In this document: piece after piece, positions 1-16,659 of the stretch
Layout of the letters: each line of letters opens with the position of its first letter
How positions within the stretch are numbered: the first letter of the stretch is position 1
Program-made: the position numbers and the translations under genes
Notes under the pieces: generated by a model
What the model saw: the letters and a program-made list of their open reading frames with translations, nothing else
What the model was told of the DNA's origin: nothing
The model's database searches: none
IMG/VR virus record: IMGVR_UViG_2690316176_000005
Reading direction: 5' to 3' (one strand)
Origin: a virus
Taxonomy: Duplodnaviria; Heunggongvirae; Uroviricota; Caudoviricetes
Length of the DNA: 16,659 nucleotides

Positions 1-405
1 ATGGATCAGGTCGTTGTTTTTCAAAAGATGTTTGAGCAAGTGAGAAAAGAGCAAAACTTCTCCTGGTTTTATTCAGAATTAAAACATCACCGTATTGCAC
101 ATTACATTTATTATCTGGCTACGGATAACATCAGAATTATTACTCACGATGATACGGTTTTGTTATTAAGAGGAACCAGGAACCTGTTAAAAGTTAGTAC
201 GACCAAGAACCCTGCTAAAATAAAAGAGGCCGCATTGCTTCATATTTGCGGAAAATCTACATTTCGGGAATACTGTTCAACACTGGCAGGTGCGGGCGTT
301 TTCCGGTGGGTTACTGATGTTAATCATAACAAACGCAGTTACTACGCCATTGATAATACGCTTTTATATATTGAAGATGTAGAAAATAATAAACCATTAA
401 TCTAG
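1..405 (+). CDS. Hypothetical protein, 134 aa; by position and length it fits the host gene next to iraM in E. coli K-12 (ycgX-like)
   Basis: Intact ATG-to-TAG ORF starting at base 1. Assignment is by synteny with iraM and the icd' scar only; I do not recognise the sequence itself. Confidence 0.4.
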   Translation: MDQVVVFQKMFEQVRKEQNFSWFYSELKHHRIAHYIYYLATDNIRIITHDDTVLLLRGTRNLLKVSTTKNPAKIKEAALLHICGKSTFREYCSTLAGAGVFRWVTDVNHNKRSYYAIDNTLLYIEDVENNKPLI

Positions 406-607
406 CTAAAGTTGGATACTTAAGAAATGCTTCATAATTCAGTAAGGCATTAGCATAATGGAAATAAAAGTGCAGAGACTATCTCTATGGATGATTAATA
501 CTGTCTTTTTATTGTCACCCATAAATAATCACCAGACTAATACTATCAACTTGATATTTGAAATGTGATCACTTGACTTTTGATACGTTATTTTATAACG
601 GTTAACA

Positions 608-663
608 TATTTATAAAAACAACGGCCGTGCCACACGTCCGTTTCAATACTTAACGCACATGT
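608..663. repeat. Degenerate second copy of the icd 3'-flank/terminator hairpin (aacggccgtgccacacgtccgtt + tcaatacttaacgcacatg)
   Basis: About 45 nt with clear similarity to 1481-1524, including a stem-loop at 621-644 with compensatory changes that preserve the stem. Confidence 0.5.
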
Positions 664-1010
664 ATTTTGGTTTAGTCATCATCCGGTTATATGTATTTTA
701 GCCAGGAACAGGTTAAATCATTCCTATATAACTCAAAAATTGAAACCTTATTCTCATGTCATGCTTATATTCATTATTATCGTTATATAAAAAGGCAACC
801 ATAATGTTTAGCAAATTGGCACAAAGTAGCATAAAGGCTATGTTTTAATTACAGGATGTTCAGTCATTTGAATGTATAACATTATAGCTAAACAAATCTA
901 AAACGAAGTCAATAATTTATTGCTTTCACAAAATCTCATTTTGTTTAACATCCATTGAGATTCCTTGCTTTAAATTTTATTTTATATAAGCCATCATTTT
1001 AATTAATTTA

Positions 1011-1027
1011 TTTTTTTGAGGGGGGGG
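1011..1027. repeat. Homopolymeric tract T7 followed by G8, about 80 bp upstream of iraM and just 5' of a TAATAT -10-like hexamer
   Basis: Directly visible: tttttttgagggggggg taatatact. Confidence 0.9.
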
Positions 1028-1104
1028 TAATATACTCATATGCAAAATCAAGAAATAAACATCCTAATGAACCATATTAAATACCGTGGGATAAGACATA
1101 ACAA

Positions 1105-1428
1105 ATGAAGTGGATAGTAATTGACACGGTAATTCAACCTACATGTGGTATATCTTTTTCAGCCATATGGGGTAATATGAAAATGATCATCTGGTATCAA
1201 TCTACTATATTTCTCCCTCCTGGCAGTATATTTACACCGGTTAAGTCTGGTATTATCCTTAAGGATAAAGAATATCCTATTACTATTTATCACATCGCAC
1301 CATTCAACAAGGATTTATGGAGTTTACTCAAAAGCAGTCAAGAGTATCCTCCAGGAGAAAGCAAAATAACAAATAAATGTTTACATAATAGTTGCATTAT
1401 AAAAATATGCCCATATGGGCTCAAGTAA
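1105..1428 (+). CDS. iraM: Anti-adaptor protein IraM (RssB inhibitor), 107 aa
   Basis: Translation [15 protein letters not shown]...ICPYGLK matches my recollection of E. coli IraM (107 aa). In K-12 iraM lies next to the icd' fragment at the e14 right end, as here. Confidence 0.6.
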
Positions 1429-1471
1429 TGGGCTTCATATAAATATGCTCGATATGCTATTAATAATATCC

Positions 1472-1507
1472 ACATAAATAAAACAACGGGCGTGTTATAC
1501 GCCCGTT
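1472..1507 (-). terminator. Rho-independent terminator of icd (probably bidirectional, so it may also terminate iraM)
   Basis: On the minus strand: stem AACGGGCG / CGCCCGTT with a 7-nt loop (1484-1507), followed by GTTTTATTTATG. It lies about 25 nt downstream of the icd' stop codon. Confidence 0.6.
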
Positions 1508-1533
1508 TCAATATTTAACACATGGAGAGATTA

Positions 1534-1692
1534 CATGTTTTCGATGATCGCTTCACCAAACTCTGAACATTTCAGCAGCTTAGCGCCTTCCATCAGACGT
1601 TCGAAGTCATAAGTTACGGTCTTGGCATTGATTGCGCCTTCCATACCTTTAACAATCAGGTCAGCCGCTTCAGTCCAACCCATATGGCGCAG
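1534..1692 (-). pseudogene. icd: Duplicated 3' fragment of isocitrate dehydrogenase gene icd (53 C-terminal codons plus stop); prophage attachment-site scar (attR side)
   Basis: Minus-strand translation [54 protein letters not shown] matches the Icd C-terminus. No icd sequence lies upstream of it; the adjoining DNA is AT-rich and non-coding. Confidence 0.9.
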
Positions 1693-2395
1693 CAGTATAT
1701 AAAAACCATGAATTCAAGTCATTGATATTTAACGATAAAAATTATTTTATTGTCTTTTTATTAGCCAAAATAAACTTTATTCAACCGTTTGATTTCATTG
1801 ACGTTCGTTTTTATTTTGGGGAAAGGTTTTCTCTACCATTTATATCCAAATTACAAGTCTACATTTTATTAACATCTCAATACATGTGAGGCCTTGCAGA
1901 CCTTTGTGAGACCTTATGTGTCTCTGTTTTGTCCCAACTTATGTTAAGAGGCACATAATTAAAAATAAGATAACGATGCCGCCAAGCAGTGCAAAACCTT
2001 GTTTACTCCACGACTGTCTGCCCCATTATCTGCATACATAATTATCCTCCATAACTGAGATAAATGTCGGTTATGAGCGAACAACAGACGTTTAGTTTAT
2101 GATGGCTGTGTCTATACATTAAACATAACATCCATTACCGGCACCGCTTATTAATTGCTATCTGATATTGTCACTAAAAAAATAGGCATTCCCCGATATA
2201 ATAATCACAAAGAAGCTTTTGGTGCTGGCAATCGGTATACCTCATAGTGGACTGCGACTTTCCGGGCACGACAAGGATATATCAATGTATGAGCAGGAAA
2301 ATTAGACCGTGGTGCGTCATATGATGACTAAGCACGGATAACAGCTACTTAATTGAAACTATTGATTATATTACAGCCAGTGCCTTATAGGATGG

Positions 2396-3517
2396 TTAGT
2401 CATCAACCGCGACTCCTGCACAATCATGGGCTATTGCCAGCAATTGTTTTTTAATTGCTTTAGCATCTACCGTCATATCTACTGTAGCAAAATGGATCTT
2501 ATGTCCCTGAGTGACAACATACTCATTAAGCATATAGCCAACAGCTGGATGAAGTAGAAGACCAGCGGCATTGAGCGAAAGCGGATCCGTCTTGTTCTCC
2601 TGTGTTCTAAGGTAGGTATATAGCTGATAAATATAGCCATTACGTAGTGATTGCTCCCGATGCCAACCCTTTGTCAGAATCGAATTAAATTTGGTATCGA
2701 TAATAATACGCCGCTGGGCAGTCTTGTGTTCCAGAATAATGTCTGACTTCATTGTCGGGAAAATCTCTGCACTACCTGCACTTTGATCGCTCAACGCCCA
2801 TTTCAGCTCTTTCCCTGCAGAGACCTGCCAAGTTGTTTTGGCAAGGTGTACACGATATAAGCCAGCGATACCTTTTTCAAATAGTCTTCTCATCCAGTAA
2901 AGGTTATTTGAGGGCGCAGGTAAAAGATATTGGCCTTGATCTTCGGTCGGCATCAGCAGTTCAAAAGCTAATCGTGCGGCATCGACCATCGGTTTATCTG
3001 CGGCATCATGGCGTCCAAAACGCCACACTGAGGGTAATTCGCGGGGGGCAGGATATCCTCCATTTATCCCCTCACGGCGAAGTGATATTGCCATAAAATG
3101 GCAATCTGCCGCCAAAGACGGTTTCACTATGATTGAGGCCAGACGTTCTAACGCACAGCGAACATAGCGATTTCGGGGGGTGTTGAGGGTTATGTCTTGA
3201 AAATGGCAGGCAACCTGTCCCCGTTCCAGCAGTTGATGACTGGCAGTATACAGTATGTCAATGCGCCCTCTCACCCGGTTCAGGGCCGCATGACAAGTTT
3301 GGTATCCCATATTTAAATTGCGACGTCGGCGCAGCGTAATCTCATGAAGGAGGATTGTCGCCACCAGGTCGGGGATTTCTGCTGGGTTATCTTCTACTGC
3401 GATCTGATTGCGCCCTAACTGGCGAAACAGATCTGAAGCGTACAGCATCAGCATCCAGATATTTCGCATGGGAATACGTGATGCTGTATGTTGCTCACTC
3501 CCGGTTATTGTCGTCAT
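2396..3517 (-). CDS. mcrC: McrC-family type IV restriction endonuclease subunit (PD-(D/E)xK nuclease), 373 aa
   Basis: N-terminal IPMRNIWMLMLYASDLF resembles McrC IPVRNIYYMLTYAWGYL. The C-terminal IIIDTKFNS...LRNGYIYQLYTYL resembles the McrC catalytic region IVDAKYYKS...QNLYQLMNYL. The ATG overlaps the upstream gene's stop (ATGA), indicating translational coupling. Confidence 0.8.
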   Translation of the reverse strand: MTTITGSEQHTASRIPMRNIWMLMLYASDLFRQLGRNQIAVEDNPAEIPDLVATILLHEITLRRRRNLNMGYQTCHAALNRVRGRIDILYTASHQLLERGQVACHFQDITLNTPRNRYVRCALERLASIIVKPSLAADCHFMAISLRREGINGGYPAPRELPSVWRFGRHDAADKPMVDAARLAFELLMPTEDQGQYLLPAPSNNLYWMRRLFEKGIAGLYRVHLAKTTWQVSAGKELKWALSDQSAGSAEIFPTMKSDIILEHKTAQRRIIIDTKFNSILTKGWHREQSLRNGYIYQLYTYLRTQENKTDPLSLNAAGLLLHPAVGYMLNEYVVTQGHKIHFATVDMTVDAKAIKKQLLAIAHDCAGVAVDD

Positions 3518-5496
3518 TTTGCTAATAACACTTTTCTGGCTTCATCGACTTTATTTGGAGCATCGAACCAATATTCGGCGAGCAAAGGGCAGATCTCTGT
3601 ATCAACGACTTGTTCATACCAAGCCTGGGCATCGTTGATTTTTTGGCCGATAGCTGGGGTGACATAGCTGTGACCGATACAAAACTGTGGTCCTAAGGTA
3701 ACATCTTTTGCCAGCATATCGTTTAATACCGTCAGTCGAGATTTGATGAATGCTAACATGTCAAAATCAATTGCGTAATTATAATTTACCCAGTTTCTCC
3801 ACGCGTCATTAAAAGCTGGCTTTAGATCGATAAACGCGAAACGACGGCGCAGCGCTAGGTCAAGTAGTGCGAGTGAGCGGTCTGCAATATTCATCGTACC
3901 GATGATATATAGATTCTCAGGAATGTATATTTTTTCATCAGCATTTTTAGGATAGGAAAGAGATAATGCCTCAGTCGGCGTGCGTTTATCTGCTTCCATC
4001 AACGTGAGTGTTTCACCGAAGATTTGCGCCGGATTGCCACGATTAATCTCTTCAATTATCACCACATATTTCGAGGTAGGATTATTGACTGCAGTTTTGA
4101 TTGCATTTACAAAAGGTCCATCAATTAGCGTCAATTGCCCTTCTTTACCTGGACGCCAGCCTCGAATAAAGTCTTCGTAAGAGAGGTTCGGGTGAAATTG
4201 CACCGCGCTAATACGCTCAGGTGCTTTTTCTCCCATCAAGCAGTACGCCAGACGTCGCGCTAACCAAGTTTTTCCAGTTCCGGGTGGTCCTTGTAATATC
4301 AGGTTTTTCTTGTCGATCAGGCGCTGAAGTGTGAGTTGGATCTTAGCCTCTTCCAAGAAACAGCCATCCTGCACCAGATGACTGATGTCATAAGGAACGT
4401 GGGTGAGTTTTGGCAACAGCGCACTCTCTTCGACAGTTTCCTCAGTTATCGTCTGGGATTCGTTTTTCTCAAAATTCAGGTATTCATAATTTCCGGACTC
4501 GAGGGACTTTAACTCATCATCATTGCATAGTTTCTGTAGATAAAAGTAGATTGAGCTTGTAACAGTTTTGCTCTCAGGATGCTCTACCTTGAATACGTCC
4601 AAGTAGTTTTCTTCCAACTCCGAAGCAGTGAAATAAGGGCCATTTTTTTTCAGGCATAACGCCTTAATTTTATTCAGTAAAGAGGCTTTCCACGTTCTAT
4701 TTGCCACCTCATCTTTAGACTGGCTAAGATCTGTATTCCACGCTGATAAGGAAAGTTCTGGGAAAGAATGAACCGGATAGTTTGGTTGGGTAAAGACCTC
4801 GTTCAGCGCCCGCATAAGACTCAGGTAACTTTGTCCACTACAGCGACCTTTTGCCCCGTTTTTAATGATCTTAATGTTTAACACTGTCTGAATGTAATAC
4901 TGCGACTGGCTATCTAAAGTGGGGTAGAACCAAGGACGGGTCCAGTACAACCCCATGGTGAGATTCCAACCGACATTCATTACTGTAGAAGCGATGTCAT
5001 ATGCGGCAGTGAAGTCTGCAGAGTTAGTATTCTGGTTATCCGCAAAGATCATTGCCTGTGAGAACATTTCCCACAAGCATTCAATGTCATTAGGGTCGCG
5101 TGACTTTTCATAACCAAAGAACCAAGATTTTTGGTTATTCAACAGAGGGATTCCGGCAAAGGAGTCAGGAATCGGTTCGTTCACGCCCAACAAATTCGCT
5201 AGCTTGGCAGCAATAATTTTGCGATTGCTGTCGGTCAAGTTACGATTGAACAAGCCCATAGTAGTAAACGGACAAATGTCTTTTAAGGGAAAGATCTCTC
5301 CCATAATAGATTTGTCCTGCAGATGGGACATTCCTTCCACACCCGAGGCAATTAGATGAATACCTTTGACTAATTCATCTCTACGATTTCGCCAAGTCAG
5401 TAACGCGTTGGCAAAAGCCTCATAAAAACTAGCCCAAGCAAACTTGCCATCATGTTCTGCTGTATCCACGGGAACTCCATTATACTTGTTGAGCAA
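3514..5496 (-). CDS. mcrB: McrB-family AAA+ GTPase with a long (~365 aa) non-canonical N-terminal domain, 660 aa
   Basis: Walker A LILQGPPGTGKTW. The VVIIEEINRGNPAQIFGE and IIGTMNIADRSLALLDLALRRRFAFIDL motifs are almost the same as McrB MIIDEINRANLSKVFGE and MNTADRSLAVVDYALRRRFSF, including the NxxD GTP-specificity motif. The N-terminal region has no similarity I recognise to the McrB 5mC-binding domain. The called start is TTG at 5494-5496; an in-frame GTG at 5467-5469 with a GGAG 5 nt upstream is an alternative. Confidence 0.85.
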   Translation of the reverse strand: MLNKYNGVPVDTAEHDGKFAWASFYEAFANALLTWRNRRDELVKGIHLIASGVEGMSHLQDKSIMGEIFPLKDICPFTTMGLFNRNLTDSNRKIIAAKLANLLGVNEPIPDSFAGIPLLNNQKSWFFGYEKSRDPNDIECLWEMFSQAMIFADNQNTNSADFTAAYDIASTVMNVGWNLTMGLYWTRPWFYPTLDSQSQYYIQTVLNIKIIKNGAKGRCSGQSYLSLMRALNEVFTQPNYPVHSFPELSLSAWNTDLSQSKDEVANRTWKASLLNKIKALCLKKNGPYFTASELEENYLDVFKVEHPESKTVTSSIYFYLQKLCNDDELKSLESGNYEYLNFEKNESQTITEETVEESALLPKLTHVPYDISHLVQDGCFLEEAKIQLTLQRLIDKKNLILQGPPGTGKTWLARRLAYCLMGEKAPERISAVQFHPNLSYEDFIRGWRPGKEGQLTLIDGPFVNAIKTAVNNPTSKYVVIIEEINRGNPAQIFGETLTLMEADKRTPTEALSLSYPKNADEKIYIPENLYIIGTMNIADRSLALLDLALRRRFAFIDLKPAFNDAWRNWVNYNYAIDFDMLAFIKSRLTVLNDMLAKDVTLGPQFCIGHSYVTPAIGQKINDAQAWYEQVVDTEICPLLAEYWFDAPNKVDEARKVLLAK

Positions 5497-5829
5497 TGAT
5501 AATTTATCTGTGTGAGTTTTAACATATTACTATCAGTTATAGAAAAATTTAACTATCCGATACAGAGAGCGGAATGCTGAATTTGACCTGACTTGCTTCC
5601 AACCAATTAAAATCAACTTATTTATCAATTGGTTATTTTGGCACATGGCGGTCATCAAGGCAATATCGCGTTGTCATAAGGTGTCGAGGCTCGGAGGTTC
5701 AAATCCTCTCATACAAAAAATAAATAAAATTAATGACGGTTGGAAATTATTCAATACACTCTCGAAAGTACATCAGCCAACCGCAGCACGTTATTGCATA
5801 TAACGTTTCTGCGGCATATCACAAAACTA
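5497..5829 (-). promoter_or_regulatory. AT-rich intergenic region between tfa and the mcrB-like gene; presumed promoter of the mcrBC-like operon
   Basis: A 333-bp non-coding AT-rich gap upstream of a two-gene operon. No specific -35/-10 assigned. It also contains a tRNA T-arm-like motif (see findings). Confidence 0.3.
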
Positions 5830-6414
5830 TTATTCCATAACAGGGATTGCAGGCCACTCAATATCAGGTGCAGTTGATGTATCAACACGATTCAGCAACA
5901 CCCGATACTTCTTCCAGGCTTCAAGCAACGAGGTTTCTTCCTCCGTTGCGATTTCCAGATCTGCAGCATCCTGAAGCGGGGCAATATGCTCACTGGCTAC
6001 CTGCATCAGGCTGTTTTTTGTTTCTTCCGCCTCCCGGATCCGGAACAGTTTTTCTGCTTCCGTATCCTTCACCCAGGCTGTGCCGTTCCACTTCTGAAAC
6101 TCCCCTTCCGGGGATAACCAGGTGATATTTTCCGGTAGAGGTCCGAGTTCAGAAATAAATAACGAGTCGCCGGAAGCCACGTCATAGACGGTTTTTCCCC
6201 GATGATCTTCAACGAGATGCCACGATGCCTCATCACTGTTGAAAACAGCCACGAAGCCTACCGGAATATCTGGCGGTGCAATATAGGTACTGTTTGCTGG
6301 CAGACCTGTATGAGGCGGAATATATGCGTCACCTTCACCAATAAATTCATTAGTTCCGGCCAGCAGATTATAAATTTTTATGGTCCGTGGTTGTTCACTC
6401 ATTCTGAATGCCAT
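5830..6414 (-). CDS. tfa: Tail fibre assembly protein (lambda Tfa / TfaE family), 194 aa
   Basis: [51 protein letters not shown]... is the conserved Tfa N-terminus of E. coli lambdoid prophages. Its ATG overlaps the stf stop (TAATG). Confidence 0.85.
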
Positions 6415-9263
6415 TATGCAAGCCTCACAATGTAGTTAAATGCGATGTTTTTGACGGTGTTTTCCGCGTTACCAGCAGCGTTAACGGTGATGGTGTGTCC
6501 ATGTGAGCCAATCGCAACGGAGTGCGTATGAGCACCAATACCGACAGTATGTGCATGTGCGCCTGCGCTTGCAGCAGTGCCGGACAGCGAGTGGGTATGA
6601 GCACCATCTGATGATGTCTTCCCTGCATTACGAGTCTGGCCACTACCGCTTGTTGTGCTCATAATCCCCGCGCTTAGATTTGAAATCGCGGTATAACCAT
6701 TAGGGAAAATGCTCGTGTTCGTGCCACCAAATGCACCGGAACTCTTGTGTTGGTGCGCACCGGCACTATTTGCGGTCCCGCTAATACTATGGGTATGCGC
6801 CCCGGTGTTATTCGTGGATTTGGTTCCGTAATCAAACGACGATGTGGTTTTCGTCCCCAAATCCGTACTGGATGCGCTGGCGCTGTGGGTGTGCGATTTA
6901 ATGCCGTCCTGTTCCTGAGACAATACGGCCCGACCACTGGCAGGTTTGCCCTTAATCGTCCAGCCACGCATATCAGGGATCACGCCTGACGGATAAGCGG
7001 CTGCAAGTTTCGGGTAAGCAGATTTGTCAAAAGTCTGCCCCTGCATCAGGGCATAACCAGACGGAACGGTATCTGATGGCCACGGGATTGGTGCGCCGAC
7101 TGGGTAGCTTTCTGGTGGAAGATTTTTCGAGGTATAAACTTCTGCCCAGCCTTCCTCAAAACCATAACCGTCTCTTGAAGAACGGTAGAACAGACCACCA
7201 TTTCTGTAATGCGCCTTCATCTGCAGGGTCCGGCAACTTCCGACTCCGGTATAGAAGTTAACCAGAATATAGCTGTCGCCAGAGCGGGTGACATTGTAAG
7301 CGCCTGATTCGGCATTCCAGGGAACGCCACCATCCGCATCGGCATATGTATCCGTTGCCCTTCTGGCAAAAGCAGCCACATGCGCGGCGGTTAAAGTAAT
7401 ATCTTTGGAACCATCAAATGGAACACCGGATATTTTTCTTGCAGTCTGGAGTTTTGTAGCAGTTGCAGCATTACCAGTGGTGTTCTGATTACCCGTAGTG
7501 TTTACACCTGGAAGGTTAATATTTGCAGAACCGTCGAAAACAACTCCACCGATAGATCTTGCCGTCTGCAATTTCGTGGCTGTACTTGCATTACCATTCA
7601 ATGAACCAGTTAATCCACCTGTAACAGACAACGGACCTGAAACTGTTCCTCCGGTTGTTGGCAGTGCTCCAATATCTGATGGTGTAGGTTTCTGATGTGA
7701 GCTATACATCGTATAAACAACACCATAGGTAACGCTGGAAGGCTTACTCGCTGAATATGTTGGCGAGGTATAAACAGAAACTGACGCATTTGCAGTACAA
7801 TCCCAATGGATATTTACACTCGTCGCATAATTGCCAATCTCAACGTAAATATCATATGTATCGCCGGATGTGTTGATCCAGGCGAAATTCGTTAATCCGA
7901 CGGCTGTACGCTTCCACAAAGCCCCGGTAATTCCTTTGGGGTTTCCATTGCCTGCTCGTAGAACCAGTTCTGAAATGCCTGCCTGATGTGGGGAACCGAC
8001 GTTGTAACCAGCGCCACCAATCAATGCGATGTAAACGATGGAACTCGCTTGTGGCATGGTAACCGTAGCCAGTTTGAACCACCCAGCCCCGCCAGAGAAA
8101 GACATCGTTACTGAATTTAAAGTACCAATATCTTTCGGCGTTAATGTTATATCCGCAGTCAGTGCTTTTCCGTTAACTTTTCGGTTAGATGGCACCCTGC
8201 TATTCGCATTGTCATTGGCTGCTTTAACTGCTTTTGGCGTTGCGGCCAGCGATTCACTGGTGCTATCAACAGCACTGCTAAGTTTCACAACACCTTTAGT
8301 TGTAAGGCTTGCGTCTTCCATCGCAACTGCACCGGCAATCTCTTCAGCACGATCAGCAGCAGCTTCCGCACGGGTCGCAGCGGATTCAGCAGTAGTTTTG
8401 CTCTGAGATGCCGCCGTCGCACTGCCAGCTGCCTCTGTCGCCTTCGTGGATGCTGTCGTGGCGCTGCCTTTCGCTGCTGATGCCTGTCTGCTCGCCTCAT
8501 CTTTTGAAGCAGACGCAGATGATGCCGATGACGCCGCCGAACTGGCGGACGATGCAGCTGCCATTTTTGAGGATTCTGCACTGGTTTCCGAGGCTTTCGC
8601 GTTCGTTTCGGATGTCTTCGCTGCGGATGCAGACCTCGCTGCTGCGCTGGCCTGTTCAGCGGCTTCGCCAGCCTTCGTTGTGGCTGTTGAAGCAGACGAT
8701 GCGGCGCTTTCTGCCGATTTTCCGGCGGCGGTGGCACTGGCTGAGGCCTGCCCGGCACTTGTTGACGCGGCACTGGCAGACGACGCAGCCGCTGTTTTTG
8801 AGCCTGCCGCAGCCGAGGCGCTCTGTCCCGCTGCCGTTTCAGAAGACCTGGCGTTTGTCTCAGACGTCTTTGCCGCCTTCGCGGAATTGCCTGCCGCCGT
8901 TGCCGAGGAAGCGGCACTACTGGCGCTTGATGATGCGTTCGTTTCTGATGATTTCGCTGCCTCTTTTGAGGCCGCCGCATCCCGGGCTGAGGTGGCTGCT
9001 TCTGACGCCTTCGTGGTCGCGGCGGATGCAGAAGTGGCTGCTGATTGTTGTGACGCTGCCGCATTCGTTTCTGACGTTTTCGCCGCACCGGCACTGGTAG
9101 CTGCCGCGCTTTTTGAGGACTCTGCAGCAGCACTTTTTGCTGCTTCACGGGCCTTTGTCGATGCCGTTCCTGCGCTGGAAGACGCTGACTGAGCCGACGA
9201 CGCGGCCTGTCCGGCTGACGTGCTGGCGGCACGTGCTGAGCCTGCAGCATCGGTTATTACCAC
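6414..9263 (-). CDS. stf: Side tail fibre protein (lambda Stf family), 5'-truncated, 949 codons in frame
   Basis: Ala/Ser/Thr-rich repeats (AAKTSETNA...), the conserved [20 protein letters not shown] segment, and a C-terminus ([46 protein letters not shown]...[49 protein letters not shown]) that matches lambda Stf. The roughly 130 N-terminal residues of lambda Stf are absent; the ORF-track start is a GTG immediately after an in-frame stop. Confidence 0.85.
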
Positions 9264-10113
9264 TTCCCGGATCGCTATACGCTATTCCGTTAAAGATAAT
9301 GGGCGGAATAATGATTTGACGGTCAAAGTTATGATCATCGCTGATGGTGACTGTAACCGTCCCGTTTGGTGTTTCCGTATTACCCCACGTACCAGCCTGT
9401 TTCGGGAATGATTTGGATACAGCTTTAACGAAGTCACCTCTGACCTGAGTCGCCTCCAGCATGCCCTTAATCGTACAGTTTTCATTTACCGTGACATTGT
9501 TGAGCGTCCCGGCGTTCGCATTCACACTGCCACTGATATCCGCATTTTTAGCGGTCAGCTTTCCGTCCGGTGTCAGGGAAAATGCCGGTGGATTTCCACC
9601 GCTGGTAATGGTGGGGGCCGTCAGGCGTTTCAGGAACACGTCGTTCATGAATATCTGATCGCCCTGACCAACAAACATCGGTTTTGTGTTGCCATTCGCA
9701 GGATTAACCATCGCAATCCTGTCCGCCGCCAGCAGCACCTGACTCTGCATGCCGTCAGGGGTGTTCTCAATATCCACGATGGCCTCTTTTTCCGGTACAT
9801 GCTGCACGGCGGTGATGGCATACGTGCCGTCATCGTTCTCACGGATACTCACGCAGCGGAACAGGCGCTGGCGCAACGTCGGCAGCTTCAGCCCCCATAC
9901 GCTGTATTCAGCAACGCCGTCAGGAACACGGCTCACTTTCACCTTCACGCCGTCGGTGACGGACTGAACCTCCACGCTGACCGGACTCCCCTGCCCGTCA
10001 ACCAGGCTTATCAGCGTGGTGCCGGAAGATGGCAGCGTGATTTCACGGTCGAGCGTCAGCGTCCGGGTCTGGCTGTTTACCGCCAGCACGCGCCCGCCGG
10101 TGCGGATACCCAA
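9145..10113 (-). pseudogene. J: Remnant of tail-tip / host-specificity protein J: a middle segment joined to a C-terminal segment, with internal deletion
   Basis: [99 protein letters not shown] and ...[46 protein letters not shown]... match lambda J from memory. The several hundred residues that separate these blocks in lambda are missing. The N-terminus is absent, the called start is TTG, and the reading frame runs into stf. Confidence 0.75.
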
Positions 10114-10331
10114 GCTGGAGTGGCGAACGTTTTACCCTTGCTGATGAGGTATTCACTGATTTCGCTGTACCACATGTGGCTGAGTGCATTCTGGGAAAGA
10201 CTGCGTCTCTCGCGCCACGGTTTAAGCACCATGCGAAAGCATTTGCCGTCCTCCAGATAAGGCTGGATCTGCCGACCGATAGCGGTGAAGTTACCGCGAT
10301 GCAATTTGATACCATCTTGTGGGAGGTTCAC
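10077..10331 (-). pseudogene. 5' fragment (~76 codons) of a NinB-family (lambda nin-region) gene, truncated at the junction with the J remnant
   Basis: GTG start with a strong SD (GGAGGTGAAGC-GTG). The motif WRERRSLSQNALSHMWYSEIS resembles lambda NinB ERNRSLDQNRKLWACLGDVS. The ORF ends inside J-homologous DNA. Confidence 0.5.
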
Positions 10332-10525
10332 GCTTCACCTCCGCAGAGATCAAACGCTGGATGCAAAATATCGCAGGTGCATTTCTGCATCTGTGAATGG
10401 AGAAGAGAGGTTGGATTGTATGTGCGCATAAACGTCCCCGTTTAGCGCAGAAGTCACCGGAGTTGTTCAGGCCCCAATGGCATGATTATGGCTGGTTGAT
10501 TATTGGAAATCAAATGTGCTGAAAA

Positions 10526-11035
10526 TTAGTCTGCCAAGTCTTCCTCAGTCGCAACTGGGTAATTCCAAATATCAAAAAAAGCTATAGCCTCCTGCCATTT
10601 GCTCCATAAGTTATCAAGTACTTGTGTAGGTTCCGTACTTTTAAAAACAGAATCAGCCGCATCACCGTTATGAACTTCCTCGTACAGTTCCATTATTAGC
10701 AGATTAACAAAGTACTGTTTCAACATTAATGCCTGATTACCTTCTTTCTGCTGGCTATCCTGCTTGATGATCTCCATCGCCCGTACTAGGCACCTGATGA
10801 TATCCGCTGCATCATTAACGCTCCATTCAGATCCGCGCTTATCTTTAGCTGATGAATTGGCTCTCTCAGCGCAAGCCTTTAAAGACTCATAAAGGTAAAC
10901 TCTATTTTGTAGCTGCAGCGCTTTTTTTGACGTGTACCAACTTGCAAGCGCCGACCCCGCTGCGGCTAATGTGCCAAACGCAGAAATACCTGCTGCTATT
11001 GCACTTAAGTCGGCACTGTCAAAGTTCCACATCAT
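10526..11035 (-). CDS. Hypothetical moron protein, 169 aa, with one predicted N-terminal transmembrane helix
   Basis: Intact ATG ORF in an AT-rich segment. The N-terminal hydrophobic stretch DLSAIAAGISAFGTLAAAGSALASWY is followed by a charged soluble region. A terminator from the upstream unit lies at 11212-11250, so this gene probably has its own promoter. Confidence 0.55.
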   Translation of the reverse strand: MMWNFDSADLSAIAAGISAFGTLAAAGSALASWYTSKKALQLQNRVYLYESLKACAERANSSAKDKRGSEWSVNDAADIIRCLVRAMEIIKQDSQQKEGNQALMLKQYFVNLLIMELYEEVHNGDAADSVFKSTEPTQVLDNLWSKWQEAIAFFDIWNYPVATEEDLAD

Positions 11036-11211
11036 CGTTACACCTTATATAAATACCCCTCAGTAATATCCAATAAGGTATGTGCACAATCAATATAATT
11101 TTATCCGTATCGGCACATAGCGATTTGAACGCTACTGGTAATGGTATATTTTAGATTATATCGTCCAGTTTACAGCACCCGTATTTTATGAAATGGACTC
11201 GCATATTACCC

Positions 11212-11250
11212 AAAAAATGCCAGCACTTCCGTCATCGTAGAATGCTGGCA
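11212..11250 (-). terminator. Rho-independent terminator (perfect 8-bp stem tgccagca/tgctggca, 17-nt loop, then T6 on the minus strand)
   Basis: Minus-strand sequence: tgccagca ttctacgatgacggaag tgctggca tttttt. Confidence 0.55.
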
Positions 11251-11293
11251 GTATTTCTAACTAGTGACTTTATTGGAACAGATTCTGACGGAA

Positions 11294-11593
11294 TTATGGT
11301 AACACTCGACTCCACTTATCATCCAGCCACGGCTGGAATTTTACATGTGCCGTTTCTCTGGCGAGGATTGCTCGCGCTCTGTTGAGTATCTGGGGATATT
11401 CTTGCTCGATAGAAGTAAAGCGGCCGGCTTCGCGGTGCTCCGCAACCTGAAGTAGTGGAGTAACGTTCTGGCAGGCAGTTAACATCACATCACCTGCTCG
11501 CCATAACCAAGCACGTGCACAAAGTTTGTTATCAGTGAATTGTTTTGTGATTGGGTATTGTTGAACTGCTAGAACGAGAACGCCAGCATCCAT
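11294..11593 (-). CDS. Hypothetical protein, 99 aa (low confidence)
   Basis: ATG with an AGGGA 6-10 nt upstream; followed downstream by the 11212-11250 terminator. No family recognised. Confidence 0.3.
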   Translation of the reverse strand: MDAGVLVLAVQQYPITKQFTDNKLCARAWLWRAGDVMLTACQNVTPLLQVAEHREAGRFTSIEQEYPQILNRARAILARETAHVKFQPWLDDKWSRVLP

Positions 11594-11704
11594 TGGCAGT
11601 CCCTATAGTAAAACCATAGCTCAGGACGCTTCGTTCAGGATAGATAATTTTATTGTACTTACCTAACTTTCTTACTATAGCACGGTTGAAAAAGTGATTA
11701 TTAC

Positions 11705-13231
11705 TCAAAAATAAACCTCACCATCAACCATATATTTGAGAGTACTTATCGCCTGCTGGGCGGATATTGTTTTCATTAAAGGATAGTGTTTAAAAACAAT
11801 GCCATTCATAAAATAGATATCACAGGTTTTATTATCTGTATTGATTATGATTTTTTCGAATGTTTTATAGGCAAGTGTACGACATAGCTCTCGCCCATTT
11901 TTACTGGTTAAGTCAATAGCATGAAAATCACCAAGTGAACTCACCGCTTTACTCTTCAAAGTTTTTAATGATACAGAAGCCCTTCGTAATTCCTTATCTA
12001 ATACTCTGATTTTTTCTGCTATAGCGGTAACTTCAGGCGCAACAGATAATGCAGCAATTAAATTATTAATTTTCATCTGGAGCTCAATAATTTTCAACTC
12101 TAAAGTTTCATTAGCATCTTTCTTGTTTTCAACTGGTTGGATTTTACTACAATTAAAAAGCAACTCATTAATGATATTATAATCAACCAAATCTCTCTTT
12201 ATTGATGGCCTGTCACATCGATGCAGTCTTCTCATCGGACAAACATAATAGCCATGCAAACTTCCAGATACCGCATGAACAATCATGGTATTACCACAAG
12301 CCTCGCACTTCATAACTGTTCGAAGTAGATTTATCAACATAGGATTTTTGCTACTATTGCTAATACCAAAAGGTGCCAACCGAATTTCCTGCACAGCGTA
12401 AAACAAATCATCTGATATGACTCTGGGATAATAGCCAGCGATTTCACTTATTCCTTTACCTCTTGCACGATATGAAGGTACGCATATACCTATCAGAGCT
12501 TTATTCGCTAATAATTTTTCAATTACAGAAGGTCCCCATGCACTTTCTTTTCCTGAGAAATTCTTTACAGCATGATCATTTAAATACTTGGCTATTGCAT
12601 TCAATGAGCGCCTTTCCATCCTGAGTTTAAAAATTAGCTCAATAGTTTTCACCCTGTCGGGGTCTGGAACAAAAGCCGTTCTTTTGTCATCCAATGAGAG
12701 CCATCTCGGACAAGACGCCGTCATAATCGTGCCTGACTCCAGTGCATCCTGCCGTTTTTTCTTCCATGATAATTTAACCCGACTTGACTTTATCTCGCTT
12801 TCTTCATTTGCCCTTTGTGCTATAAGTATGGCTTTTATTAATGAATATGGCTCATTCAATGAGTCAATATTATAGACTGTATTATCGCAAAGAGTTATAA
12901 CATCAATACCGTGATTCAAAATCAATTTCAGACGCTCAATCGCCTCACCGACTTTTTCTCTTGAAAGTCTGTCCAGACTTTCAACTAACAATGTAGTCCC
13001 TGGCAATATATAACCATGTTCTATAGCATCTAAAAATTCCGAAAAAGCTCCTGATTGTGCATGCTTTCCATTGAATGCGCTTAACCCCAAATCTTCATAC
13101 GTTACGGTATCAAGGTAATAATCACTATTTACCTTTAGCCATTCAGTAATAAGCCTTCTCTGGCGGTTTAATGAATCACCAGACATCTGACTTGGTGATG
13201 AAAATCGCATATATGCTATGGCTTTTTTCAT
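11705..13231 (-). CDS. ybcK: Large serine recombinase (resolvase/invertase-type catalytic domain, recombinase domain and Cys-rich zinc ribbon), 508 aa; YbcK-like as in prophage DLP12
   Basis: N-terminal AIAYMRFSSPSQ...GDSLNRQ carries the serine-recombinase catalytic Ser/Arg motifs. A C-x2-C...C-x-C cluster (MKCEACGNT...YYVCPMRRLHRC) is present. Its size and position next to emrE-ren-P match the DLP12 arrangement. Confidence 0.8.
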   Translation of the reverse strand: MKKAIAYMRFSSPSQMSGDSLNRQRRLITEWLKVNSDYYLDTVTYEDLGLSAFNGKHAQSGAFSEFLDAIEHGYILPGTTLLVESLDRLSREKVGEAIERLKLILNHGIDVITLCDNTVYNIDSLNEPYSLIKAILIAQRANEESEIKSSRVKLSWKKKRQDALESGTIMTASCPRWLSLDDKRTAFVPDPDRVKTIELIFKLRMERRSLNAIAKYLNDHAVKNFSGKESAWGPSVIEKLLANKALIGICVPSYRARGKGISEIAGYYPRVISDDLFYAVQEIRLAPFGISNSSKNPMLINLLRTVMKCEACGNTMIVHAVSGSLHGYYVCPMRRLHRCDRPSIKRDLVDYNIINELLFNCSKIQPVENKKDANETLELKIIELQMKINNLIAALSVAPEVTAIAEKIRVLDKELRRASVSLKTLKSKAVSSLGDFHAIDLTSKNGRELCRTLAYKTFEKIIINTDNKTCDIYFMNGIVFKHYPLMKTISAQQAISTLKYMVDGEVYF

Positions 13232-13486
13232 GGTGACACCTGCTAAAGTATGCTTTTATAAACCTTAGTGGTGAGATATGATTTTTGTTTAATTTTTATT
13301 TAAAAAGACAATTAAGGTCACATTATCTTGAATATACAACAATAATCGTATTGCAATTTTCTTACACCATAATCTTGAAAGCACAAAAGAATGAATAAAA
13401 ACTAAAGACATTAACAAAAAGCATAAAACGAGGCCCATATAAATATACGAGCCTCCATATTTTAGTCGTTTAAAAACAAATTATTT

Positions 13487-13819
13487 TTAATGTGGTGTGC
13501 TTCGTGACAATAAATTAATAACCAACACACCGGCACAAATCAACATCATGCCTATAATGGCTGGCAGGTCCAACCGTTGGCCGAAAAATCCCCATGATAG
13601 TAAGCTAATCAGGACAATACCGACTCCTGACCAGATAGCATAAGCAATCCCTGTAGGAATATAAGCCAGCGTCTGAGCTAATAACCAGAATGATGCACAA
13701 TAACAAATAATTGTACCAACAGATGGCCATAACCGTGTAAAACCTTCTGAAAACTTCATTAAGGTTGTACCAATGACCTCTGCAAGTATTGCACCACCAA
13801 GATAAATATAAGGATTCAT
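13487..13819 (-). CDS. emrE: Small multidrug resistance (SMR) efflux transporter EmrE, 110 aa
   Basis: MNPYIYLGGAILAEVIGTTLMKFSEGFTRLWPSVGTIICYCASFWLLAQTLAYIPTGIAYAIWSGVGIVLISLLSWGFFGQRLDLPAIIGMMLICAGVLVINLLSRSTPH matches EmrE. The ORF-track ORF extends 18 codons upstream, but the true start is the internal ATG at 13817-13819. Confidence 0.9.
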   Translation of the reverse strand: MNPYIYLGGAILAEVIGTTLMKFSEGFTRLWPSVGTIICYCASFWLLAQTLAYIPTGIAYAIWSGVGIVLISLLSWGFFGQRLDLPAIIGMMLICAGVLVINLLSRSTPH

Positions 13820-13886
13820 AGCATATTCTTTCCTGTTCAAACTGGAGAGAATTGTACTACAGTTTGAACTCAACTCACCTGTTTCA

Positions 13887-14189
13887 TCATTGTGTACCCA
13901 TTGATGTTCTTTTATATACCCTCAATACCCGTTTCATCGCGGCACTCTGGCGACACTCCTTAAAAATCAAATTCGTGCTCACCTTTCCTTCCCATTCTTC
14001 TCTGGTAGCGAACCGATAATACACCGTTCGCCAGACCTTACCATCAACGACCAGGATTCCTGCCCGCGCCATTTTAGCCGCAGCCTGATTTATGCTGGTT
14101 ACCGTTGCGCCTGTTACCGCGGCAACGTCCTGCGCACAGAATTTCTTATGAGTCCCCAGGTAATGAATAATTGACTCTTTGCCCGTCAT
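13887..14189 (-). CDS. ren: Lambda Ren-like protein (Rex exclusion escape), 100 aa
   Basis: MTGKESIIHYLGTHKKFCAQDVAAVTGATVTSINQAAAKMARAGILVVDGKVWRTVYYRFATRE... matches lambda Ren from memory. Its start overlaps the P stop, as in lambda. Confidence 0.75.
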   Translation of the reverse strand: MTGKESIIHYLGTHKKFCAQDVAAVTGATVTSINQAAAKMARAGILVVDGKVWRTVYYRFATREEWEGKVSTNLIFKECRQSAAMKRVLRVYKRTSMGTQ

Positions 14190-14887
14190 ACCCTTGCTCC
14201 TTTCAGCCCAAACTTAGCTTTGATTTCTGCGATCTTCGCCAGAGCCTGTGCACGATTTAGAGGTCTACCGCCCATGACAGGAAGTTGTTTTACTGGTTCA
14301 GGTATAGCCTCACCACGGTTAATTCGTGCGGTCATACAGGACAGTTCATCGGCAGCCTTGCGCCGTAATTCCGCGTCAGTCAACGCATTGGCCCGCATGT
14401 TCTGATACAGGTTGGTAACCAGCCAGTAGTGCGCGTTTGATTTCCACGGATAAGACTCTGCATCCGGATACAGCCCGCGCTTCCGGCAATACTCGTAAAC
14501 CATATCAACCAGCTCGCTGGCGTTTGGCAGCCCGGCGGTAACGGATGCTTCTTCCCGGCACCAGGCGACAAACTGCCCGGGTGATGGCAGGAATGGTCGA
14601 TTCTGCCGACGGGCTACGCGCATTCCAGCGTTAACCTGTTCCATTGTGGTGATCCCGTTTTCCCGAAAAGCCAGCACCCACTGGCGGCGGATTTCGTTCA
14701 GTTCATTCTGGTCACGGTTAGCCAGGCTCGCCGGGAAAGTTGCCAGTAACTGGCTGAACACACCGTTGATGATCTGCGCTACCTGCTGTACCTGTGGCTT
14801 TTCGTCGTACTGTTCCGGCATGTTGTTGGCGATCCGACGCATCTGCTCACGGTCAAAGTTAACCATCTGTGCGGCGATGTTTTTCAT
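14186..14887 (-). CDS. P: Lambda replication protein P (DnaB helicase loader), 233 aa, apparently intact
   Basis: MKNIAAQMVNFDREQMRRIANNMPEQYDEKPQVQQVAQIINGVF...AKIAEIKAKFGLKGARV is near-identical to lambda P as I recall it. The start overlaps the O stop. Confidence 0.9.
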   Translation of the reverse strand: MKNIAAQMVNFDREQMRRIANNMPEQYDEKPQVQQVAQIINGVFSQLLATFPASLANRDQNELNEIRRQWVLAFRENGITTMEQVNAGMRVARRQNRPFLPSPGQFVAWCREEASVTAGLPNASELVDMVYEYCRKRGLYPDAESYPWKSNAHYWLVTNLYQNMRANALTDAELRRKAADELSCMTARINRGEAIPEPVKQLPVMGGRPLNRAQALAKIAEIKAKFGLKGARV

Positions 14888-15168
14888 AGATCCACCCCGT
14901 AAATCCAGTCAGTGTTTGTCAGGTCGAGTTTTGGTTTGCCGACTGTCACGCCAGCCTGTTGCTTGTTCCGGTTGATTTCGAGCTGGGTCCACTTGTCGCG
15001 GAGTTTGGCCGGACTCAGCACGTTACCGGACCAGAAGTTGTCCTGGCAGGCCCAGCGGAACAGTACACACATGTCGCGGTGGTTACGTCCATCACGTTCA
15101 CGCATCAGACGGATATCGTTACCGGGATCGACGTGAGAGCTGTCGAACAGGGGGATGATGCGTGGCAC
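14884..15168 (-). pseudogene. O: C-terminal fragment of lambda replication initiator O; the N-terminal ori-binding domain and ori iterons are absent
   Basis: ...[78 protein letters not shown] matches the O C-terminus from memory. Real O homology probably stops near 15110; codons above that are just the antisense of exo. No TCCCTCAAAACGAGGGA-type iterons were seen. Confidence 0.6.
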
Positions 15169-15774
15169 AAATTACGGCTCGGCGTCATCACCGCTTCAGA
15201 AGTTCACAACGTGATAGCAAAGCCCCGCTCAGGAAAGAAGTGGCCTGACATGAAAATGTCCTACTTCCACACCCTGCTTGCCGAGGTTTGCACCGGTGTG
15301 GCTCCGGAAGTTAACGCTAAAGCACTGGCCTGGGGAAAACAGTACGAGAACGACGCCAGAACCCTGTTTGAGTTCACTTCCGGCGTAAATGTTATTGAAT
15401 CCCCGATCATCTATCGCGACGAAAGTATGCGCACCGCCTGCTCTCCCGATGGTTTATGCAGTGACGGCAATGGCCTTGAACTGAAATGCCCGTTTACCTC
15501 CCGGGATTTCATGAAGTTCCGGCTCGGTGGTTTCGAGGCCATAAAGTCGGCTTACATGGCCCAGGTGCAGTACAGCATGTGGGTGACGCGAAAAGATGCC
15601 TGGTACTTTGCCAACTATGACCCGCGTATGAAGCGTGAAGGCCTGCATTATGTCGTGGTTGAGCGGGATGAAAAGTACATGGCGAATTTTGACGAGATGG
15701 TGCCGGAGTTCATCGAAAAAATGGACGAGGCACTGGCTGAAATTGGTTTTGTATTTGGGGAGCAATGGCGATGA
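15079..15774 (+). CDS. exo: Lambda exonuclease (Exo / Red-alpha), complete apart from the first ~3-6 codons and native start
   Basis: From about 15112 the translation ...[85 protein letters not shown]...[14 protein letters not shown] matches lambda Exo. The native ATG/RBS is replaced by the O' junction; the nearest in-frame start is GTG at 15079. Confidence 0.8.
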
Positions 15775-15929
15775 CGCATCCTCACGATAATATCCGGGTA
15801 GGCGCGATCACTTTCGTCTACTCCATTACAAAGCGAGGCTGGGTATTTCCCGGCCTTTCTGTTATCAGAAATCCACTGAAAGCACAGCGGCTGGCTGAGA
15901 AGATAAATAACAAACAGGAGGATATATGA
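15771..15929 (+). CDS. Small ORF, 52 aa, homologous to the lambda ORF immediately downstream of exo (orf60a-like)
   Basis: [52 protein letters not shown]; its ATG overlaps the exo stop (ATGA). The DNA matches the lambda post-exo sequence as I recall it up to about 15905-15920. Absent from the ORF track because it is under 60 aa. Confidence 0.5.
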
Positions 15930-16545
15930 GTCAGGTTGGTAATCATTCATTCGAATTTCCGGCATCGCAAGGTGTACAGGGTGGTACTGTTACACTCTTC
16001 CTTACCATACCAGGAAGATCGCTGGCTCGTTTCCTCGCTTCAGATAATTACGGCCATACACTGGAACGCTCTCAGCGAGAAATTAATCCAAATCGAGTAC
16101 GAAAATTTTTAAATTATCTCACTAACGCAGACTCAAGAAATGAGCCTTTTATCATTCCCCCTCTCGTAGGTAACTGTGATTCGAATATAGAATTTGTACC
16201 GTTTGGCAACACAAATGTTGGTATAGCCAGAATTCCCCTCGACGCCGAAATAAAACTTTTTGATGGTCAACATCGTGCAGCTGGCATTGAGATATTTTGC
16301 CGAAGTTCCCCATCAACGCTCATGGTTCCCATGATGCTTACAATGAATCTGCCGCTAAAAACCCGGCAGCAGTTCTTTTCGGACATAAATAACAACGTTT
16401 CTAAGCCATCAGCGACCATCAATATGGCGTATAACGGCCGGGATGATATTGCTCAGGGAATGATATCCTTCCTGACCCAACATACTGTATTTGCCGATAT
16501 AACCGATTTTGAACACAACGTAGTGCCATTAAAAAGTAATATGTG
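15926..16545 (+). pseudogene. DGQHR-motif (DndB-like, ParB/Srx-fold) protein gene, 3'-truncated by IS insertion at about codon 206
   Basis: ATG overlaps the preceding stop (ATGA). The conserved LFDGQHRAAGIEI motif lies at residues 112-120 (nt 16259-16285). The last 16 codons of the 222-aa track ORF are read from the IS left end, so the native C-terminus is missing. Confidence 0.6.
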
Positions 16546-16659
16546 TGAACCGCCCCGGGAATCCTGGAGACTAAACTTCCTGAGAAAGAGGTAAACAGGA
16601 TGACTAAAAATACTCGTTTTTCCCCCGAAGTCCGTCAACGGGCAGTCCGTATGGTTCTG
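16546..16659 (+). mobile_element. Left end of an IS3-family insertion sequence (IS629 / IS1203-like), partial; continues beyond the window
   Basis: Terminal TGAACCGCCCCGGGAATCCTGGAGACT..., followed after about 50 nt by an orfA start whose product matches IS629 OrfA from memory. Confidence 0.75.
16600..16659 (+). CDS. IS3-family transposase OrfA, N-terminal 20 codons (partial)
   Basis: MTKNTRFSPEVRQRAVRMVL matches the N-terminus of IS629/IS1203 OrfA as I recall it. Confidence 0.75.
   Translation, partial: MTKNTRFSPEVRQRAVRMVL

Follow-up and report, generated by a model that had tools for sequence, protein, structure and literature searches.

A probable McrBC-family restriction operon with a replaced reader module, carried as cargo in a defective icd-integrated lambdoid prophage of Escherichia coli

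A 16,659-nucleotide stretch of DNA catalogued as viral (IMG/VR record IMGVR_UViG_2690316176_000005; the whole stretch is called the window below) contains, near a scar of the icd gene, two overlapping genes that resemble the McrB and McrC subunits of McrBC restriction enzymes. What does this pair encode, what might it recognise, and how does it come to stand at the end of a prophage in Escherichia coli? An earlier note on the same DNA had taken it for an McrBC operon that replaced mcrA in an e14-like prophage. Our analysis of the locus indicates that the operon probably specifies a functional two-subunit, GTP-driven nuclease of the McrBC family (type IV-like), carried as accessory cargo in the slot between tfa and attR of a defective lambdoid prophage integrated at icd. 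The type of system, the cargo slot and the subgroup of McrBC relatives concerned are already known; the new element is an E. coli-native, prophage-borne member.

The operon and its replaced reader module

Both open reading frames (ORFs) are real, and profile searches find the McrB and McrC homology that the earlier note had proposed. The parts of the operon are as follows (aa, amino acids; PGAP, the Prokaryotic Genome Annotation Pipeline):

2396-3517, minus strand: mcrC-like gene, 373 aa, nuclease/activator subunit (Pfam, NCBIfam, alignment to 6hz4_M)
3514-5469, minus strand: mcrB-like gene, 651 aa from GTG 5469 (start chosen from PGAP and the sequence)
4732-5469, minus strand: DUF8425 (PF28527) N-terminal domain, aa 10-255, mostly helical, globular (Pfam of homologues)
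4471-4692, minus strand: winged helix of DpnI_C type (PF17726), aa 269-342 (family profile)
3535-4365, minus strand: McrB AAA+ GTPase motor and lid, aa 378-654 (PDB 6hz4_A, Pfam)
4267-4290, minus strand: Walker A, GPPGTGKT (motif reading)
4039-4065, minus strand: Walker B, VVIIEEINR (motif reading)
3880-3891, minus strand: NxxD signature, NIAD (motif reading)
3838-3852, minus strand: arginine fingers, LRRRF (motif reading)

The McrC-like protein matches the Pfam family McrBC (PF10117) at 5e-21, scores 356 bits against the NCBIfam McrC equivalog NF007277 (cutoff 338), and is found by phmmer at 2.6e-15 when compared with EcoK McrC (PDB 6hz4_M). Its residues D259 and D274-x-K276 (nt 2690-2752) align with the PD..DxK catalytic residues of EcoK McrC, and its conserved IPMRNIW (aa 15-21) aligns with IPVRNIY near the N-terminus of that protein. 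PGAP begins the gene at 3469 in some genomes, giving a shorter form, and annotates the overlapping 373-aa form in strain 730V1; on the sequence the long form is the better supported of the two, because the conserved IPMRNIW lies upstream of the short start and because the ATGA overlap with mcrB recurs in Leclercia.

The motor of the McrB-like protein matches PDB 6hz4_A at 5.6e-76 and is 47% identical to residues 178-457 of EcoKMcrB; the lid family PF28529 (McrB_lid) was assigned on homologues. Against the NCBIfam McrB equivalog the protein reaches 262.5 bits, where the cutoff is 637, and the match covers only positions 176-452 of the model. The longest ORF runs from TTG 5496 (3514-5496, minus strand, 660 aa), but GTG 5469 is the likelier start, judged by a GGAG 5 nt upstream and by the 651-aa call of PGAP. 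The stop codon of mcrB and the start of mcrC overlap as ATGA at 3514-3517, which is in keeping with the translational coupling that had been proposed. The same 4-nt overlap is present in a Leclercia homologue, the order McrB then McrC with an overlap is kept in Leclercia, Syntrophaceae and K-12, and the Leclercia and Syntrophaceae operons share the architecture DUF8425-DpnI_C-AAA_5-McrB_lid.

The N-terminal part is where the protein departs from EcoKMcrBC, and the equivalence to that 5-methylcytosine (5mC)-specific enzyme which the earlier note implied fails here: the specificity domain is replaced by DUF8425 and a DpnI_C-like winged helix. BLASTP finds no similarity to the 5mC-binding N-domain of EcoKMcrB in the first ~370 residues, and the N-terminal 387 aa have no match at E<=10 in the local Pfam; the newer Pfam assignments (PF28527, PF17726, AAA_5, PF28529) were taken from homologues in a search of 5.8 billion proteins. 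The DUF8425-McrB family comprises 1944 clusters (50% identity) at E<=1e-3 and 1343 at E<=1e-10. DUF8425 stands N-terminal to an AAA_5/McrB domain in all nine long family members scanned, is conserved across phyla at 43-72% identity, and has near-invariant motifs that include DICPFT, FNR, GWNLTMGLYWxRPW and PTLD; no relative of solved fold was found for it. Some family members vary the theme: among the 150 best family representatives, 12 have DUF8425 in two or three tandem copies; many proteins of the family have a further N-terminal extension of ~150 aa (YWFVGA...GIWE...VSVMAIKAIG...), not recognised by the local Pfam; and one carries TPR repeats.

The winged helix is a true homologue of DpnI_C (E 1.9e-12, family profile against PDB), although a single-sequence phmmer search of PDB gives no match and only the family profile finds DpnI. 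In its recognition helix, SSIYFYLQ (nt 4534-4557), the DpnI methyl-pocket and GATC residues E228, K229, R231 and Q232 are S, S, Y and F, and Q235 alone of the five is kept. E. coli hosts are all Dam+ and mostly Dcm+. With four of the five contact residues replaced and the host Dam+, the winged helix was rejected as a reader of Gm6ATC. As read from these residues and the Dam+ state of every host, Dam-methylated Gm6ATC is an unlikely target for the operon as a whole.

The slot, its prophage and the distribution of the cassette

The operon lies, as had been noted, between tfa and the icd' scar, in a slot bounded by window positions 1950-5776. The surrounding features are:

1530-1697, minus strand: icd' (icdC), the duplicated 3' end of icd, forming the attR core and the chromosome boundary (comparison with K-12)
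1698-1949, no strand: attR-proximal prophage arm, ~250 bp, common to many icd-integrated lambdoid prophages (genome matches; breakpoints 1936-1949)
1950-2395, no strand: non-coding left end of the slot, from the attR arm to the mcrC stop, which moves with the cassette (breakpoint comparison)
5470-5829, minus strand: tfa-mcrB intergenic region, AT-rich, GC ~0.34 (composition and element scans)
5830-6414, minus strand: tfa, tail-fibre assembly gene, the right border of the slot and not part of the system (Pfam Caudo_TAP, 7.3e-44)

The slot is variable. Its attR arm is matched at 91-97% identity in 1466 of 5426 complete E. coli genomes, and only 301 of these 1466 continue into McrBC-type sequence. 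The possibility that the cassette is a conserved ancestral part of the prophage family was thus checked, and these numbers argue that it is not. In MEI2O1-23 the sequence matches the window as far as 1949 and again from 5777 on, 53 bp past the stop of a tfa with 93% DNA identity; the cargo in between is a DUF3800 gene, a hypothetical gene, a DUF4236 gene and a DUF2971 gene. In ST131 and CUVET21-H2 the cargo is sitABCD, accompanied in ST131 by a further hypothetical gene, and an O157:H7 strain carries an acetyltransferase, a helix-turn-helix gene, ompT, a hydrolase and IS66. The comparison supports a variable cargo hotspot adjoining attR. Of the defence-cargo swap that the earlier note had proposed, the hotspot with alternative cargo therefore stands, whereas a direct exchange of mcrA for mcrBC does not. 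The DUF2971 protein of MEI2O1-23 (L006:12229-12969) matches the PADLOC defence candidate PDC-S31 at 1.6e-16, and defence-type cargo may recur in the slot. A survey of E. coli defence islands (PMC10121019) makes no mention of icd or e14.

The 3.1-kb cassette itself is present in 305 of the 5426 genomes (~5.6%, about 1 in 18), always on the chromosome, in 1-2 places per genome (median 1) that are all at least 99% identical; at least 80% of the cassette is present in 289 genomes. It has no match in 50,697 phage records (blastn, tblastn), plasmid matches are short AAA-domain stretches only (<=17%), and on these searches we rejected the idea that it belongs to any sequenced phage or plasmid. No PHROGs family corresponds to McrC or DUF8425. 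The prophage around the cassette is decayed to different degrees. It measures ~9 kb in O157:H16 98-3133 and ~18 kb in NCTC9100; in WCHEC020032 what is left has neither tfa nor stf, and 730V1 retains a larger, DLP12-like remnant that includes lysis genes and extends beyond the stretch analysed (>25 kb). Despite this, both ORFs are annotated as intact in all four carriers whose annotation was read. For two alleles that differ at 22 of 3101 positions, the 17 synonymous against 4 non-synonymous codon differences between them indicate purifying selection.

To the left of the attR arm the window is ordinary chromosome: positions 1-1697 are the reversed K-12 flank ycgX-ymgL-ymgK-iraM-icdC at 99.8% identity, and the match ends precisely at the annotated right boundary of e14 in K-12. 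To the right of the icd' scar the window is prophage throughout, but the prophage is not the e14-like one that had been supposed. By blastn there is no e14 DNA in the window besides the flank and the icd repeat; by tblastn there are no homologues of PinE, McrA, Lit or YmfK anywhere in it, in agreement with the reported lack of a pin invertase, and its Tfa is only 36% identical to TfaE. The two elements have in common only the icd integration site with its icd' duplication and an IntE-type integrase, which is encoded outside the window (L002:30017-31159) and shows 60% identity to IntE across 372 aa; this degree of identity fits the shared attachment site. As judged by its gene content, which includes the lambda/DLP12-like genes exo, P, ren, emrE and ybcK, the carrier is a defective lambdoid, DLP12-like prophage. 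Nor is its slot the mcrA slot, since e14 has an unrelated backbone and a different attR arm; the two positions are analogous only.

The closest match to the whole window is E. coli NCTC9100 (100% over 1-16545), in which the element spans ~18 kb from icd' to icd. Its genes follow in the order McrC, McrB-like, tfa, stf, tail-tip fragments, a P22AR fragment, ybcK, emrE, and then ren, P, an O fragment, exo, DUF1317, a DGQHR protein, TraR, DUF4222, xis, int and icd.

Composition says little about the origin of the cassette. The earlier note had found it AT-richer than its neighbours, and total GC is indeed somewhat lower (mcrB 0.434 and mcrC 0.473, against 0.482 for tfa and 0.532 for stf), the high value of stf being due to Ala/Ser-rich repeats in its N-terminal half. 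However, GC at third codon positions is the same throughout (mcrB 0.451, mcrC 0.430, tfa 0.451, stf 0.447), and we consequently rejected composition as proof of foreign origin and, with it, as the sign of separate acquisition for which it had been taken.

The intergenic region 5470-5829 contains a hairpin immediately past the stop codon of tfa, a conserved element of ~125 bp, and TATAAT and GGAG sequences just upstream of GTG 5469; the operon promoter is presumed to lie within it. Terminator-like sites number 7 in 1600-6000, against 3.4 +/- 2.1 in shuffled sequence. The ~125-bp element lies just downstream of tfa (5693-5814) and includes a piece resembling the 3' half of a tRNA, GGAGGTTCAAATCCTC, followed by CATACA. 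Copies that are 74-82% identical are found upstream of sitA in ST131 (L004:9627-9735) and within the cargo of MEI2O1-23 (L006:10467-10592). The element may mark the boundaries of cargo modules as the relic of an att or recombination site. A tRNA gene in this spacer was considered and rejected, as ARAGORN and Rfam are negative and only the 3'-half-like fragment is present.

Other parts of the window show features of their own. The ren-emrE-ybcK block (11705-14189, minus strand), in which ybcK encodes a large serine recombinase, is a DLP12-type block inside an icd-integrated prophage; it is markedly AT-rich compared with its neighbours (GC 0.33-0.40), and its mosaicism is a further sign that the element is not e14-like. 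The stf ORF (6414-9263, minus strand, 949 aa) has a long, Ala/Ser-rich N-terminal half with a GC of about 0.6 and a strong AT skew. For the identical sequence in NCTC9100, PGAP gives a 635-aa tail protein together with a 'hypothetical protein' on the opposite strand (window 8408-9192, plus strand), so that the annotation of the stf region is inconsistent. An Rfam match to IS009 (RF02111; 214 bits, gathering score 117) lies at 5873-6071 on the minus strand, wholly within the tfa coding sequence. Beside exo, in the early region of the prophage, a DGQHR/DndB-like gene (15928-16659, plus strand) is truncated, the sequence from about 16530 on being the end of an IS3-family (IS629-like) element, and the best E. 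coli matches of the window all end at 16545. The intact copy of this gene (L002:27928-28992) matches PADLOC DndB at 4.3e-37; a DndB-like gene standing alone beside exo may have a role of its own in defence or counter-defence. In the chromosomal flank, a run of G occupies ~1019-1028 in the AT-rich region upstream of iraM.

Mechanism, target and competing explanations

If the homology to EcoKMcrBC extends to mechanism, McrB-like protomers would assemble into a hexameric AAA+ GTPase ring, while DUF8425 and the winged helix would bind a DNA feature that marks foreign DNA. McrC would then enter the ring and stimulate GTP hydrolysis and translocation, and its PD..DxK site would cut both strands. GTP dependence, translocation and a non-host DNA modification as the target are here attributed by analogy with the characterised enzyme. 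No methyltransferase gene is annotated in the slot or in the rest of the prophage remnant. Together with the Dam+, mostly Dcm+ state of the hosts, this makes a modification-dependent (type IV) system with a non-host modification as its target the most economical reading.

A more specific idea is that DUF8425 is a new kind of modified-DNA reader, possibly with a degenerate base-flipping fold like that of glycosylases (HhH-GPD type), which together with the re-tuned winged helix would give a class of targets unlike that of characterised McrBCs, such as a hypermodified phage base or N6-methyladenine (6mA) outside GATC. We regard this as an unlikely, tentative suggestion. If true, it would explain why a Dam+ Dcm+ host retains the operon under purifying selection in a dead prophage. 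For a diverse HhH-GPD profile, the homologues found with Nth are all 86-99% identical orthologues and the PDB matches of MutY are mostly E. coli MutY variants, so that neither set could serve.

Several observations weigh against a functional restriction system of this kind. Walker B reads EE instead of the DE of EcoKMcrB, throughout the subfamily, and in PADLOC-DB the McrB-like protein is matched through its ATPase domain only while the McrC-like protein is not recognised. No convincing sigma-70 promoter was called upstream of the operon (12 promoter-like sites are counted in 1600-6000, which does not exceed the 10.7 +/- 3.4 of shuffled sequence), and H-NS could silence the AT-rich DNA upstream. 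Some copies are disrupted by insertion sequences, frameshifts or deletions: IS3 interrupts the cassette in ML35 and IS66 in FORC_064, strain 1943 has McrC in split form, and M159-1, 19-5 and YY76-1 show deletions, IS3-mediated or other. The modification dependence is deduced from the missing cognate methyltransferase, and the literature holds no experiment on the operon or on any DUF8425 family member; searches of it for PF28527, DUF8425, WP_000379040 and WP_001486526 returned nothing.

The promoter region and the damaged copies would also fit a simpler account in which the operon is the leftover of a dead prophage, silenced or inactive and with no present role in defence. All carrier prophages whose annotation was read are defective, and the cassette occurs in none of the sequenced phages, as this account would have it. 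However, the ORFs are intact in the four annotated carriers where neighbouring phage genes are fragmented, all catalytic motifs are retained, and the 17:4 ratio of synonymous to non-synonymous differences indicates purifying selection; we consider decay without function improbable. Less probable again is that the main role is to police the epigenome, in the manner proposed for EcoKMcrBC, by killing cells or blocking DNA that introduce foreign methyltransferase genes. The two systems share their machinery, EcoKMcrBC kills hosts that acquire certain methyltransferases (PMC2614495), and vertical retention on the chromosome suits a housekeeping 'immigration control'. Such a role is nevertheless compatible with phage defence, and a prophage moron slot that in MEI2O1-23 holds the PDC-S31 candidate fits anti-phage cargo.

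The N-terminal module might instead read unmodified sequence, which would make the operon a sequence-specific McrBC relative (LlaJI/LlaI/BsuMI-like), modification-blocked or modification-independent, with other means of protecting self DNA. An unmodified site can be the target of McrB relatives whose N-domain is non-canonical, as it is for the B3 domain of LlaJI (review PMC12707154); winged helices are generic sequence readers, and DUF8425 is unusually conserved for a specificity domain. LlaJI-type systems, however, need companion methyltransferases, of which the slot and the remnant have none, and the operon has two genes rather than three or four. The cassette is moreover kept stably in 305 genomes of differing background, and 87% of surveyed loci with winged-helix fusions have no DNA methyltransferase among the three genes on either side (PMC11037411). 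We rate this as the least probable of the alternatives, and take a GTP-driven nuclease directed at foreign modified DNA as the probable function.

On this reading ~5.6% of complete E. coli genomes hold a second McrBC-type nuclease that standard annotation labels just 'AAA family ATPase' and 'McrC'. If active, it would affect phage host range, the outcome of phage therapy and the uptake of modified DNA in carrier strains. Through the operon the large DUF8425-McrB family, of whose 1944 clusters none has been studied, also becomes accessible to genetics in E. coli, where this member is native. The operon is, besides, a clear case, for a principle already established, of defence cargo that persists in the tfa-attR moron slot after its phage has decayed.

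Comparison with known systems

The slot corresponds to the b-region or moron position of lambda, next to attP. The likeness lies in the variable accessory genes between stf-tfa and attR, and the difference in the cargo, here a restriction system that outlives its prophage. Tobe et al. (2006) reportedly called the slot downstream of the tail-fibre genes in lambdoid prophages of enterohaemorrhagic E. coli 'exchangeable effector loci'. EcoKMcrA on e14 offers a parallel, being a modification-dependent restriction gene just inside attR of an icd-integrated prophage (a dependence that is presumptive for the operon described here), and its frequency is similar: in the pangenome comparison that the earlier note had proposed, the K-12-type pinE-mcrA-attR segment is found in 329 genomes (at least 80% coverage) and the cassette in 305. 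McrA is, however, an unrelated single-chain HNH enzyme, and e14 differs further in its invertible tail-fibre segment with pin.

Among McrBC relatives, the CoCoNuT or RNA-targeting branch (defined in PMC11090510) has an NxD motif, a coiled-coil and a CSD, whereas the protein here has NIAD, an NxxD; neither a coiled-coil nor a CSD is found in it by AlphaFold2 (AF2) secondary structure or Pfam. LlaJI-type restriction-modification differs in having companion methyltransferase genes within the operon. R.DpnI, whose C-terminal winged helix (PDB 4esj/4kyw) is a homologue of the one described here, differs in its fusion partner, which is a PD-(D/E)XK nuclease in DpnI and a GTPase motor here, as well as in the methyl-pocket residues considered above.

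With EcoKMcrBC the operon shares its two overlapping genes with McrB first, the motor with Walker A and B, NxxD and arginine fingers, and an McrC with PD..DxK that scores above the equivalog cutoff. The differences are that the DUF3578/ADAM 5mC-flipping N-domain of EcoK (aa 1-~160) gives way to ~370 aa of DUF8425 and DpnI_C winged helix, that the McrC is only distantly related to EcoK McrC, that Walker B has EE for DE, and that the operon sits in a prophage slot at icd and EcoK in the hsd-mcr-mrr immigration control region. With no DUF3578/ADAM domain and an equivalog score below the cutoff, the McrB-like protein is not classed as an orthologue of EcoKMcrB, which is specific for 5mC and 5-hydroxymethylcytosine.

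The operon fits the architecture of N-terminal domain, winged helix and NTPase with McrC (NTD-wH-NTPase/McrC), described in 2024 as putative type IV systems (Front Microbiol, PMC11037411): its McrB-like NTPase follows a DpnI-type winged helix, which itself follows an N-terminal domain, and the protein is paired with an McrC-like nuclease. That paper gives no activity, specificity or genomic context for its systems, and the member described here differs from them in being native to Dam+ E. coli, in having a winged helix without the DpnI 6mA/GATC motif, and in residing in a prophage cargo slot.

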